Virus record (IMG/VR): IMGVR_UViG_3300045988_158900
DNA: 64,000 nucleotides
Origin: a virus
Direction: 5' to 3' (one strand)
Shown: one piece after another, positions 220 to 64,000 of the stretch
How positions within the stretch are numbered: the stretch's first letter is position 1
How the letters are laid out: every line of letters starts with the position of its first letter
The notes under the pieces: generated by a model
Databases searched by the model: none
Told to the model about the DNA's origin: nothing
Seen by the model: the letters and a program-made list of their open reading frames with translations, nothing else
Program-made: the position numbers and the translations under genes

Positions 220-765
220 TTGAAAATAGCGCATAAAGTAAAATGTTTTTATTGTGGATAGATTTTCGATAGAGATAAATTTCCATATGTCCAAGTTGGA
301 ACTCGTCGTTATGCTCATCCTCAATGTGCTGGTGTCACTTCTGAAGAAGAAATTATTAAACCTCCAGAAGAGGATAAAGATAAGGCTGAATTAGAGCAAT
401 ATATAATGAAATTACTTGGAGAAAATTATATTAATCCTCGTGTGCGGAAACAATTAAACCAATATGTAGAAGAATATAATTATACTTATTCAGGTATGTT
501 AAAAGCCCTTATATATTTTTATGAAGTTAAAGGGAATTCTGTCGAAAAAGCAAATGGCGGAGTTGGTATAATTCCTTGGATATATAAAGATGCCTATAAT
601 TATTACTATAACTTATGGATGATAAAACAAAGAAATGAAGATAAAAATATTTCGTTATATGTTCCACAAGTTCAAGAAATAACTATACCAATACCTCAAC
701 GGAAACCATACAAGAAAAATTTATTTTCATTTTTAGATGAAGAGGAGGGTGTGAATGGCATCTAA
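220..765 (+). CDS. Hypothetical protein with N-terminal CxxC...HxxC zinc-finger-like motif, containing one in-frame TAG (259-261). Start uncertain: TTG at 220 after AAGGAG, or ATG at 406.
   Basis: The frame of the 406..765 ORF stays open upstream to 220 with only TAG at 259 in frame. Upstream translation ...CFYCG*IFDRDKFPYVQVGTRRYAHPQC... is protein-like. RBS AAAGGAG at 210-216. Confidence 0.45.
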
Positions 766-2287
766 ATATGTCGACCCAACTGCAATAATGCAAGTAATTG
801 GATGTGTTTATAATTCTCCACAATTACTTGATTTTACTGATAAATATTCAATAACCGAAGAAGATTTCCCAGATCAATTTCATAGAATTGTATTTGGAGC
901 TATTTATAAAATTCATGAATTAGGTGCTGAAAAAGTTACCTTAGAAAATATTAATGATTTTTTAGCCTCTCGTCCAAAATATCAAGGTATATATAAAGCA
1001 AATAAAGGCGAAGAATGGCTTTTAAATATTGCTGATACAGCAAAACCATTATCATTTGATTATTATTATAGTCGTTTAAAGAAAATGTCTCTATTAAGAG
1101 CATATGATAATTATGGTATAGATGTATCATTTATTTATGACCCTGATAATATTTTAGATGTCGAGAAAAAACAATTACAAGAAGATAATTTAGATAATTC
1201 ATCATTAGAGAATATTGCAAAATTAATTGATGATAGAATTGAAACGATTAAATATGAATATATAAATAATATAGAGGGTGTAGCAGTTCAAGCCGGCCAT
1301 GGAATTTTTGATTTGCTCGATTCTCTAAAAGAACATCCAGAAATTGGTTCACCATTATATGGACCACTTGTGAATACAGTAACTCGTGGAGCCAGACTAA
1401 AGAAATTTTATTTGCGTTCAGCCCCTTCTGGTATTGGAAAAACTCGTTCAATGATTGCTGATGCTTGTAATCTTGGGTGTAATAAAATTTATGATGAAAC
1501 ATTTGGTTGGATTAAAAATGGTATTTGTGAACCAGTTTTATATATTACCACAGAGCAAGAAATTGGTGAAATTCAAACTATGATGTTAGCATTTTTATCA
1601 AATGTTAATGAAGAACATATTTTGAATACAAAATTATATGTTGGTGATGAAGAAGAGCGAGTATTAGAAGCTGGTAAAATTATTGTTTCTAGTCCCATTT
1701 ATATTCGTGAATTACCCGATTTTTCTCTGATGGATGTTGAGAATGAAATTAAAAAAGGTATTCGCGACCATGAAGTAAAATATGTATTTCATGATTATAT
1801 TCATACAAGTTTAAAAATTCTTGAAGAAATTACTCGTCGTAGTGGTGGTGTTAAATTACGTGAAGATAATATCTTATTTATGTTATCAACTAAATTAAAA
1901 GATATTTGTAATCAATATGGCGTATTTATTATGTCTGCTACTCAGTTAAATGGTGCATATCAAGATGCTGAAACACCAGATCAAAATCTATTACGAGGAG
2001 CAAAAGCCATCGCTGATAAAATTGACTATGGTTCAATTTTATTACCAGTAAAAGATGATGATTTAGTAGCATTAAATGATATTTTGCAAACAAATATTTT
2101 TGAAATTCCAACAATAAAAATGTCGGTCTATAAAAATAGACGTGGAAGATATAAAGGTGTATATTTGTGGTGCAAAGCAGATTTAGGAACTTGTAGAATT
2201 AAACCTATGTTTTGTACTACTTATGGATATGAGTTAGTTCCAATAGATGATATAAAAATTAATTTTGAAGAAGAAAGTGCGTTTTAA
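755..2287 (+). CDS. dnaB: DnaB-like replicative DNA helicase
   Basis: 510-aa ORF, RBS GAGGAGGG before ATG 755. Walker A-like LRSAPSGIGKTRSM, C-terminal RecA-like ATPase with DnaB-type N-terminal domain. No in-frame TAG. Confidence 0.7.
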   Translation: MASKYVDPTAIMQVIGCVYNSPQLLDFTDKYSITEEDFPDQFHRIVFGAIYKIHELGAEKVTLENINDFLASRPKYQGIYKANKGEEWLLNIADTAKPLSFDYYYSRLKKMSLLRAYDNYGIDVSFIYDPDNILDVEKKQLQEDNLDNSSLENIAKLIDDRIETIKYEYINNIEGVAVQAGHGIFDLLDSLKEHPEIGSPLYGPLVNTVTRGARLKKFYLRSAPSGIGKTRSMIADACNLGCNKIYDETFGWIKNGICEPVLYITTEQEIGEIQTMMLAFLSNVNEEHILNTKLYVGDEEERVLEAGKIIVSSPIYIRELPDFSLMDVENEIKKGIRDHEVKYVFHDYIHTSLKILEEITRRSGGVKLREDNILFMLSTKLKDICNQYGVFIMSATQLNGAYQDAETPDQNLLRGAKAIADKIDYGSILLPVKDDDLVALNDILQTNIFEIPTIKMSVYKNRRGRYKGVYLWCKADLGTCRIKPMFCTTYGYELVPIDDIKINFEEESAF

Positions 2288-61900: not shown

Positions 61901-64000
61901 TACTACTTTGCACAATCTAAATATATTGACGCATTTTAGCCATACGTTTATCTGTACCAGTCTCATCCCAAGGTATTGATGCAATTTCTTTCTCTAAGCT
62001 TTGCAGTATTCCTAAATCCTAAATATTTTTAGGTAAATTTTCACGAAATAAATTAAAATAAGCTTCAGCTTTTGCTGTAGCTATTTCAAAATCTTGAGTA
62101 GGAATTGGATCTTTTATATTAACAACATTAGCATAATTTTCACTTGTTAAATTAGTTAATTTATCTAACTATGCTGTGACTTCAGTTGTCATTTCATTAA
62201 ACAAATTTGCTACTGGAGTAGTACCATCAGCTTTTAACCAAGCAGATAAGATATTATTTACAAGATTATCATTTAAGGTATCTATTTTATTATAATACCC
62301 TTCTAAATCACTGTATAATTGTTCATATTTTCGACCTAATAATGCATCCTTGGCATTTCCAGGATTATTATGGTAACTAGCCTAATCCCAAACTTCTTCC
62401 ATCTAATTATTATATGCTTTTGAAATACCTTTTTTGTCTCCTATCATGGTATCTTGAGCATTATTTATAATCTTTGTATAAGCGTCAATTTCTTGACCTA
62501 ATTTGATAAGCTAATCTCCCTACTACTGGATACCCTATTTTTCTGTCTCCCAAAATGATTTCTCAGCTGCCGTCATTCTTTCTGAAGCTATAGCTATTTT
62601 ATCTTTCATTTCAGAAACACGTTTAGAATTTAATAAACTCTATTTAGATTCTTCATCTAAATTATCACCTTTTTTAGATAAATAATTAGAAGTCTATTCA
62701 TTTATTTGAGCATGAATTTTAGCATAAGCTTTATCAGCTCCACCAACCAATATTTGAATATTACTAATAACATTTCGTAAAGCAGGCTCAATTTTTGAAG
62801 CTAAACTCTATTCAACAATAGTTAATATTCCTATTAATACTGGGTTAAGGCCTCCTATTTTATCAATAAATGAATCAACACCATCAACAGTGTCGGCTAA
62901 AAAATCAGTTAATTTAATAAAAAATTTATCATCAATTAAATCTTGATATAATCCCTAAAATGAAGCCTTCAAACGCTTATTAGCGGCTTCCCAAGACTCT
63001 TCATAAATTTTCTATTGCTCAGTTAATGTTCCAGTAGCATTACGAGCAGTTTCGAGATTTTCTTTCATGAAATCCCATTTATCCATCAATGCAATTAATT
63101 GAGTATATTGGCGGACACCAGCAACAGTTTGAGCTAATGCCACTTTAGCATCTTTAGAAATTAATGGATTTCCTTCAGCATCAAATGAATTCCATTTTTC
63201 GCCTAAATCATCAAGGATATCATCCATCTCTCGCAATCCGCCATCTGCTGTTTTAATAGAAACACCAACAGTTTCAAGAGCTTGAGAATATTTTCCTAAT
63301 GTAGTACCATCTTCAAGAGTTTTTCCCAATTCTAAATCTTGAATACGAGCAAATAATGTTTTAAATGCAGTACCAACCACATCAGCAGATTGACGAGTTG
63401 TAGCTGTTACAGTTGCTAAAGCAGAAGTAGCATATTCATAACTTAAACCTACTGTGTTAGACACAGCTGCGAATTTTTCTAATCCAGCTGCAATTTCATC
63501 TGTGCTTGATGCAGTGGCTGCGCCTAAAGCAGTCATAACATCAGCGTAATATTCTAATGATTGTGACCCATCATAGAAATTATTCCAAACAGCAGTTAAT
63601 TGCTAAGAAATTTTATCAGCACTTTCACCAGCGGCATTAGCCATTTTAATTGTAACAGCAGTTCTATCTTCTACTTCTTTATCAGATAAACCCTGTTGAT
63701 AGTAAATTAAAGAAGCATCAGTATAATTTAATGTAGAAGTACTTAATGCTTTTGCCGCTTTATTTGCTTTATCAGCAAATTTATCCATATAGTCAATATT
63801 ATGACCAGTAACAATTCGAATATCATTTAATGATCTGTTTAAATCCTAAGCATAACCATAAGCCCCTTGTAATGCTCCCATTACACTATGAATCATACTT
63901 GAAGAAATCTACCATTTAACTGTATTTTTAACAGTAGTTAAAAAATCCTATAAACGAGCATTTAAACTAATTATTGGCTAATCAGCCGCAGCTATGGACT
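55971..64000 (-). CDS. Tail tape measure protein, 3' portion (>2670 codons in window, continues beyond 64000), numerous in-frame TAG
   Basis: All eleven minus-strand track ORFs from 56439 to 63603 share one frame (mod 3 = 0). Coiled-coil, Ala/Glu/Lys-rich content. TP901-type TMP core block (...ALGAATASSTDEIAAGLEKFAAVSNTVGLSYEYATSALATVTATTRQSADVVGTAFKTLFARIQDLELG...). Ends TAA 55971-55973. Confidence 0.6.

Follow-up and report, generated by a model that had tools for sequence, protein, structure and literature searches.

Probable Reassignment of TAG from Stop to Glutamine in a Large Siphovirus-Type Gut Phage

Introduction

The 64,000-nucleotide stretch of IMG/VR virus record IMGVR_UViG_3300045988_158900, referred to as the window at its full length, raises the question of how the codon TAG is read by the phage to which it belongs. 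Under translation table 11, most of the conserved genes of the window are broken by this codon. In an initial annotation of positions 220-64000, it was proposed that TAG is read as sense throughout the genome while TAA and TGA terminate, in the manner of code-15-like phages. Stop-codon recoding is widespread in gut phages of many clades, in which it is mainly a feature of late and lysis genes and is associated with suppressor transfer RNAs (tRNAs) (bioRxiv 10.1101/2021.08.26.457843). Metaproteomics has confirmed the reading of TAG as glutamine (Gln) in crAss-like phages only (PMC9523058).

As judged from sequence comparisons, the window is very probably part of a large (about 157-200 kb), siphovirus-type gut Bacillota phage, distantly related to phAss-1, Enterococcus EF1-like phages and SPbeta, in which TAG, no longer a stop, encodes glutamine (code 15) and all genes end with TAA or TGA.

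TAG as a Translated Codon

The 32 gene models of the window, comprising 20,060 codons, contain 209 in-frame TAG codons and neither TAA nor TGA, as expected from the claim that genes are split by TAG only, although this count is partly circular because the boundaries of the open reading frames (ORFs) had been set by TAA and TGA. The other two frames of these genes contain 2377 TAA, 897 TAG and 1707 TGA triplets, TAG making up only 18% of the stop triplets there. Under table 11, 53% of the window falls within ORFs of 150 codons or more; re-calling with TAG as sense, the check suggested in the initial annotation, raised this coverage to 94%. The corresponding values were 55% with TGA and 68% with TAA as sense, and neither of these readings made the longest ORFs any longer.

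Matches to Pfam domains extend across the TAG codons, for instance the NRDD domain over residues 118-745 of the anaerobic ribonucleotide reductase NrdD (E=7e-147), and the TAG positions are shared with independently assembled relatives from many samples. The ratio of nonsynonymous to synonymous substitution rates (dN/dS) past the first TAG of each gene, obtained against nine relatives, was 0.05-0.23, which means that the sequence after the first TAG is translated. No TAG was found to act as a true stop, which would leave a short stretch without conservation behind the last TAG: at such sites, relatives either have a sense codon or conserve the tail. The exception is the gene at 38900-42448, in which TAG is the second-to-last codon and may be either sense or stop.

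Most particulars of the initial annotation held up on inspection. All TAG coordinates listed for dnaE, nrdD, nrdG, the kinase, the RecJ-like gene and the RecD-like gene proved exact (Table 1), and the gene identities were confirmed by Pfam. The ATGA overlaps at 8223, 15762 and 45695 and the TAATG overlaps at 2463, 3566, 12844 and 17104 were likewise found, with one further TAATG at 17355. The central claim, an alternative code and not pseudogenes, is borne out by TAG being the sole interrupter, by the conservation of its positions between phages and by purifying selection past it. Other statements had been drawn too widely. The enzymes named are indeed split by TAG, but not every conserved enzyme is: DnaB, the primase-like protein, the lysozyme, the dUTPase and the block at 16284-18421 are TAG-free. 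Late genes do mostly become whole only by reading through TAG, the late gene at 25579-27513 (644 codons) being TAG-free. The rho-independent terminators said to follow the genes were overstated, as 1000-20900 holds two strong terminator-like hairpins, at 6740-6775 (+) and 19033-19001 (-), and a scan of that range returned 11 sites in total as compared with 6.7 ± 2.5 in shuffled sequences. As to the proposed genome-wide extent of the recoding, the pattern of the window is repeated in the 9 kb upstream of it on the same contig (L001; L numbers denote the loci of the comparison).

Assignment of TAG to Glutamine

To find the residue inserted at TAG, the proteins of the window, with TAG as X, were aligned to ORFs called with TAG as sense in the first 136 related loci, and the codon facing each TAG was read. 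Several of these relatives use the standard code, their ORF coverage being equal under table 11 and in the TAG-sense reading. The 1,511 aligned TAGs of the window faced TAG itself 617 times and, among sense codons, those for Gln (332), Arg (86), Lys (85), Glu (75), Asp (64), Asn (64) and His (55), with Tyr (9) and Trp (5) rare. Gln is thus the commonest sense residue at the TAG columns (332 of 894). The profile of these columns was then compared with the substitution profiles that all 20 amino acids show in these alignments, and Gln fitted best, by more than 700 log-likelihood units (Gln -2251, Lys -2987, Glu -3119, Trp -4291, Tyr -4476, Leu -4533).

Individual columns were also inspected. Residue 219 of NrdD is Gln (CAA or CAG) in 69 of 80 relatives and TAG in the other 11, while residue 539 is Gln by the same codons in 76 of 80 and TAG in 4. 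In RecJ, residue 168 is Gln in 32 of 38 relatives and TAG in 6, and residue 70 is Gln in 22 and TAG in 11. The TAG column of DnaE shows R (23), Q (19) and I (10) in the relatives, that of NrdG shows H (55), Q (11) and TAG (7), and those of the RecD/PIF1-like helicase show R, K or Q. Among three solved structures of NrdD, two have Q at column 219. At column 539 these distant homologues have F or Y, so that the Gln at residue 539 is specific to the clade.

Codon usage was compared between the two gene classes of the window. Gln codons and TAG taken together account for 3.57% of all codons in the replication genes as against 3.88% in the virion genes; where TAG rises, from the first class to the second, CAA falls from 3.06% to 2.36%. 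In the whole window, CAA (514) is the main Gln codon, followed by TAG (209) and CAG (37), TAG being five to seven times as frequent as CAG. Translations of the lineage genes P0241, P0389 (on 183 contigs) and P0404 with TAG as Q match entries of a public protein collection exactly, which indicates that gene callers already use code 15 for this lineage. These comparisons support TAG as a sense codon for glutamine, i.e., translation table 15.

It is very improbable that TAG is decoded as another amino acid, be it Tyr (one mutation from TAT and TAC), Lys, Glu, Trp, Leu (code 16) or pyrrolysine (Pyl). The default label given by ARAGORN to the lineage's tRNA with anticodon CUA (see below) is 'tRNA-Pyl', but no gene for Pyl biosynthesis or PylRS was seen. 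The F or Y at NrdD residue 539 of distant solved homologues would also fit such a decoding, as would the K/R, D or N that dominate some TAG columns in relatives. Against these stand the CAA or CAG codons at residue 539 in nearly all close relatives, the log-likelihoods given above, which favour Gln over Lys, Glu, Trp, Tyr and Leu, and the constancy of the combined Gln and TAG content between the gene classes.

Source Contig and Suppressor tRNA

The window is identical (100%) to a segment of the 157,306-bp ENA metagenome contig ERZ27256516 k119_242310, in which it lies reversed at about 35,775-99,774, and an exact copy of the DnaB protein is encoded on the same contig. Gut samples in IMG/VR and ENA have yielded numerous related contigs, 100-201 kb in length. 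On the strength of both observations, the window is a piece of a large tailed phage. Single proteins of the lineage have exact copies on up to 183-255 contigs. Assignment of the host by way of bacterial genomes was tried and rejected, as the matches were whole phage contigs binned into metagenome-assembled genomes with inconsistent labels (Mollicutes, Clostridium, Lachnospiraceae, Bacteroidales, Treponema).

No tRNA gene was detected in the window by ARAGORN or Rfam, and Rfam gave no other match there. ARAGORN had been validated on phAss-1, where it recovered both annotated tRNA-Sup-CTA genes. The flanks covered by L001, L220, L237 and L287 upstream and by L093, L140/L144, L229 and L246 downstream were also without tRNA genes, as were all 137 loci that surround nrdD and the gene for the tape measure protein. 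The upstream flank was followed by overlapping loci: the window and L001 are on the same contig (100%), L001 and L220 overlap with 94.9% identity, L220 and L237 with 100%, and L237 and L287 with 100% over 12 kb. In the last steps, L287 was joined to L292-L294 at about 96%, and L293 and L295 are overlapping ranges of the same contig. L296 and L297 are other contigs, linked by the same encoded 62-residue protein (P0419).

The walk led to a tRNA island, which in close relatives holds 16-21 tRNA genes over about 16 kb with GIY-YIG endonuclease genes between them. One of these tRNAs has the anticodon CUA, so the suppressor tRNA anticipated in the initial annotation was found in contigs of 94-96% nucleotide identity. 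The tRNA(CUA) gene lies at L292 1034-1107, L293 1075-1148, L294 1027-1100, L295 10788-10861 and L296 10790-10861, and its match to the Rfam model for tRNA reaches 52-55 bits (gathering score 29). The predicted fold is a clean cloverleaf that has a U1.U72 mismatch and G73, and the CCA end is encoded. By synteny, the source contig of 157 kb would carry this tRNA(CUA), with a sequence matching TCCGGCTTGGAGTAATGGTAGCCCGCCTGACTCTAAATCAGG..., at about position 145,800, which is ~46 kb upstream of the first position of the window.

The tRNA(CUA) genes of the more distant relatives L261 and L262 and of phAss-1 have the 1:72 mismatch and G73 in common with the L292 tRNA, and those three are similar to each other in the D-arm. 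A weak or broken 1:72 pair and G73 are identity elements of E. coli tRNA-Gln, and the likeness is a lead and not a test. L262, in which tRNA(CUA) stands beside a ROOL RNA, was considered as a close relative and rejected, as it shares just 1.2 kb at 81% nucleotide identity; it is counted with the more distant relatives.

It might be argued that TAG is still a stop in this genome, without a dedicated phage tRNA, and that leaky, context-dependent readthrough by the host yields full-length late proteins as a minor product. The window and about 85 kb of the flanks of close relatives are without tRNA genes, and TAG-suppressor tRNAs were found in only 40% of TAG-recoded phages in the published survey (bioRxiv 10.1101/2021.08.26.457843). 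Nevertheless, leaky readthrough could not yield a tape measure protein with at least 55 TAGs or the 2424-codon protein with 42, no fixed context follows the codon (A 89, T 46, G 43, C 31 as the next base), and tRNA(CUA) is present in the tRNA island of the lineage. We regard such readthrough as highly unlikely. Decay of a phage or prophage into pseudogenes, or sequencing and assembly errors, would account for the conserved genes being mostly broken under table 11 but is next to impossible and is refuted by the comparative data, with a single stop codon type in frame 209 times, identical TAG positions in independent assemblies from many samples, the low dN/dS past them, exact protein copies on up to 183-255 contigs and none of the frameshifts or TAA and TGA build-up expected in orthologues.

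Some observations weigh against reassignment to glutamine by a phage-borne tRNA(CUA) as the preferred explanation. The contigs on which tRNA(CUA) was observed are 94-96% identical to the lineage of the window, and its presence on the window's own contig is probable from synteny. The suppressor and the phage tRNA-Gln(UUG) are 65% similar, which is the background level and no closer than to other tRNAs; hence the Gln identity rests on the codon comparisons and not on the tRNA sequence. Genes for release factor 2 (RF2), an aminoacyl-tRNA synthetase or an antagonist of release factor 1 (RF1), the last of which had been put forward in the initial annotation, were seen neither in the window nor among the flank genes annotated with Pfam, for which downstream L229 and L246 were not annotated protein by protein; nor was any other release-factor gene. 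Finally, several replication genes carry TAG, RecJ as many as five, so that the split between early and late genes is a gradient and not a clean boundary.

Further features were observed in and around the tRNA islands. The island of the close lineage (L295 1-16000, L296, L297 and L292 1000-6300; about 40-56 kb upstream of the window) also has HNH endonuclease genes and small metabolic genes. At the position of tRNA-Lys, the model match spans ~134 nt in L292, L294 and L296, implying an insertion of ~60 nt, as against a plain 75-nt tRNA-Lys in L293 and L295, and the tRNA(CUA) of L297 is 92 nt long. The genes beside the island of the close lineage (L287 1-6268; L292 8352-15831) include one for a protein of 829 residues with domains of the major vault protein (MVP_shoulder, and a faint Vault_3), one for a 508-residue DUF2828/DUF7788 protein and one for a radical-SAM protein, a set unusual for a phage. 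In the more distant relatives, a ROOL RNA (RF03087; 297 and 289 bits, gathering score 99) lies inside the tRNA island, at L262 4527-5137 and L261 3917-4480, in L262 125 nt downstream of tRNA(CUA). ROOL beside phage tRNA islands has already been described (PMC12286853), and none was found in the tRNA island of the close lineage. L262 also has a twister-P1-like ribozyme match at 2377-2439 (63.3 bits, just under the gathering score of 67.2). The recoded relative L261 encodes at 871-1023 a 50-residue protein with a weak Pfam match to ArfA, an alternative ribosome-rescue factor recruiting RF2. Near the islands of the same two relatives (L262 5600-7248; L261 7090-9979 and 14591-15658) lie genes for proteins bearing the Mtd_N domain (major tropism determinant), which is typical of the targets of diversity-generating retroelements.

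Distribution of TAG and Proposed Mechanism

The share of TAG among the codons is 0.32% in the plus-strand replication genes and 1.34% in the minus-strand virion genes, a difference of about fourfold. The giant genes for tail, baseplate and tape-measure proteins rise as high as 1.6-2.5%. Ten of the TAG-free genes are on the plus strand and one is late. In many late genes the first TAG falls inside the first 50 codons.

This gradient is consistent with a timing model taken from the published survey of recoded phages. Infection would open with TAG-free or TAG-poor genes, which can be read by the standard code of the host. The phage tRNA(CUA) would then be made, charged with Gln by a host enzyme, and would outcompete RF1 at UAG. 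The TAG-rich tail, baseplate and tape-measure genes would become fully translatable only after tRNA(CUA) appears, and the recoding would thereby act as a timing lock on late genes.

TAG-free proteins are also encoded within the virion module, where neighbouring genes have 1-2.5% TAG. Besides the 644-residue protein at 25579-27513 (-) of the window, they include two proteins of relatives just past the window end (L100 1434-2540 and 6649-7725), namely a 368-residue protein in capsid position (PHROG 4088, function unknown) and a 358-residue 'virion structural protein' (PHROG 2729). TAG may be avoided in high-copy proteins. It is also conceivable, albeit rather doubtful, that TAG density sets the amount of each protein as well as its timing, the one tRNA(CUA) gene among 16-21 throttling translation in proportion to the TAG count. 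The idea comes from the TAG-richest genes being those of giant, presumably low-copy proteins while several virion-module proteins are TAG-free.

Relation to Known Phages

The closest named phage is phAss-1 (OQ749652, proposed genus Phassvirus), with 42% identity in DnaE and 35% in the N-terminus of the tape measure protein. It was described as a DnaE-encoding siphovirus with a giant tape measure protein and tRNA-Sup-CTA genes, in which TAG is read as Gln (PMC10607447), and NCBI places it in the 'Caudoviricetes code 15 clade'. The lineage of the window resembles phAss-1 in having nrdD and nrdG, a giant tape measure protein and many tRNA genes including tRNA(CUA), in the reading of TAG as Gln in many but not all genes, and in the human gut as source. 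It differs in that the two suppressor tRNAs of phAss-1 are directly upstream of its nrdD (L139 12445-12610), whereas the 73-nt spacer before nrdD is empty in the window and tRNA(CUA) is in a separate island about 46 kb off. The genomes differ in size as well, 136 kb for phAss-1 and 157-201 kb for this lineage. Considering that no megablast match to phAss-1 was obtained, that the proteins are 35-42% identical while members of Phassvirus are 80-86% identical in nucleotides, and that the suppressor tRNA is placed elsewhere, the lineage falls outside Phassvirus. With 20 kb of the window as query, megablast found only a 63-bp match among GenBank phages. In phAss-1 itself, a transfer-messenger RNA gene (RF00023; 77.9 bits, gathering score 47) was observed at L139 42139-42577 (-), positions 92,139-92,577 of the record, where the GenBank entry annotates nothing.

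The lineage likewise falls outside Crassvirales, since its best protein matches are to Bacillus, Enterococcus and Lactococcus phages, its Shine-Dalgarno motif is GGAGG and its tape measure protein is of siphovirus type. In common with the code-15 gut phages (crAss-like, Lak, Agate and others), it has TAG aligned with Gln, TAA and TGA as stops, low G+C content, a phage tRNA(CUA), a presumed standard-code host and a recoding that is concentrated in structural and late genes and variable in replication genes. Unlike them, it is outside the crAss-like and Lak groups, has GGAGG-type Shine-Dalgarno sites, encodes a DnaE-type polymerase and a tape measure protein about 2,700 residues long, and shows homology to Bacillota phages; RF2, reported in some Lak and Agate phages, was not found for it. 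SPbeta-like Bacillus phages and Enterococcus EF1-like phages, in which the code is standard, in contrast to the reassigned TAG here, likewise have a long tape measure protein, and their replication module is homologous, with a YorL-type DnaE (40% identity) and a member of the YorF family.

The lineage is therefore a further case of the established TAG-to-Gln recoding of phages and not a novel phenomenon; code 15 is already established in phages and the known mechanism is unchanged by this phage. It adds to the TAG-reassigning phages a large, widespread lineage, the proteins of which occur on hundreds of gut-metagenome contigs. As it probably infects Bacillota and not the better-studied Bacteroidota, and as standard-code relatives are present in the same clade, it is a usable system for studying how recoding arises. 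Under table 11, about half of the window looks like broken genes, and annotation, host prediction and protein clustering of this lineage need table 15.

Gene Layout

The window has a G+C content of 29.8%, and 32 gene models cover 94% of it once TAG is taken as sense. A plus-strand module at about 400-20,200 is assigned by Pfam to replication and nucleotide metabolism, with DnaB helicase, primase-like protein, RecJ, lysozyme, RecD/PIF1-like helicase, DnaE, guanylate-kinase-like kinase, NrdD, NrdG and dUTPase. It is followed by a minus-strand virion module at 20,648-64,000 with fibre-like and tail proteins (by PHROGs), several giant proteins without a family match and the tape measure protein. 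The Shine-Dalgarno motifs at start sites are of the GGAGG type. Coordinates of the main features are given in Table 1.

Table 1. Main genes of the window with codon and TAG counts (positions of in-frame TAG in brackets).
Feature	Position	Strand	Codons and TAG	Remarks
DnaB-like replicative helicase	755..2287	+	510 codons, 0 TAG	Pfam DnaB_C, DnaB
Primase-like protein	2463..3566	+	367 codons, 0 TAG	Weak Pfam Toprim, E=5e-4, below curated cutoff
RecJ-like exonuclease	4104..5849	+	581 codons, 5 TAG (4188, 4311, 4605, 4701, 5109)	Pfam DHH, RecJ_OB
Phage lysozyme, N-terminal hydrophobic segment	5903..6733	+	0 TAG	Pfam Phage_lysozyme2; followed by strong terminator-like hairpin 6740-6775
RecD/PIF1-like superfamily 1 helicase	7030..8226	+	398 codons, 3 TAG (7231, 7267, 7648)	Pfam AAA_30, AAA_19, UvrD_C_2, PIF1
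Protein without functional assignment	8223..8828	+	201 codons, 2 TAG (8298, 8631)	Start overlaps preceding stop (ATGA)
DnaE-type DNA polymerase III alpha subunit	8873..12844	+	1323 codons, 1 TAG (11681)	Pfam PHP, DNA_pol3_alpha, finger, HHH_6
Guanylate-kinase-like nucleotide kinase	12844..13440	+	198 codons, 1 TAG (13054)	Pfam Guanylate_kin
NrdD anaerobic ribonucleotide reductase	13513..15765	+	750 codons, 3 TAG (13855, 14167, 15127)	Pfam NRDD 7e-147, residues 118-745
NrdG activating enzyme	15762..16256	+	164 codons, 1 TAG (15861)	Pfam Fer4_12, Radical_SAM
Five-gene block including dUTPase (17355-17897)	16284..18421	+	0 TAG	
Small protein, N-terminal transmembrane segment	18500..18994	+	164 codons, 3 TAG (1.8%)	TAGs conserved in relatives; converges on bidirectional terminator-like hairpin 19001-19033
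Tail-fibre-like protein	20648..23809	-	1053 codons, 9 TAG	PHROG 21765; C-terminal domain repeated in 23944-24810
Late protein	25579..27513	-	644 codons, 0 TAG	Within TAG-rich module
Giant virion-module protein	27838..36003	-	2721 codons, 16 TAG	No Pfam match
Late protein	38900..42448	-	1182 codons, 19 TAG	
Tail protein	42888..45698	-	936 codons, 18 TAG	PHROG 32343, PHROG 1887 'tail protein'
Giant late protein	45695..52969	-	2424 codons, 42 TAG	
Late protein	52990..55857	-	955 codons, 24 TAG (2.5%)	Highest TAG density of the window
Tape measure protein	55971..64000	-	At least 55 TAG	Frame open to window end; start in relatives ~430 nt further (2784 codons)

The giant virion-module protein at 27838..36003 is 91-97% identical in relatives, in which its TAGs are kept or swapped for CAA or CAG. 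For the two giant late proteins, Pfam found nothing in eight TAG-free segments, and a homology search with a fibre-like protein as query did not return the exact protein. Past the terminase gene, relatives have about 8 kb (L229 10600-19000; L144 110-260) at 41-48% G+C, as compared with 30% in the window, with short ORFs only and with a G+C-rich segment full of hairpins; the stretch gave no Rfam match. The tail-fibre region of the window holds duplicated modules. The C-terminal ~150 residues of the 1053-residue (20648-23809) and 288-residue (23944-24810) proteins are 57% identical and have the motif GAVWNDYAE[FY]RE, while the N-terminal parts of the 202-residue (24941-25549) and 644-residue (25579-27513) proteins are 36% identical, both matching PHROG 25888.

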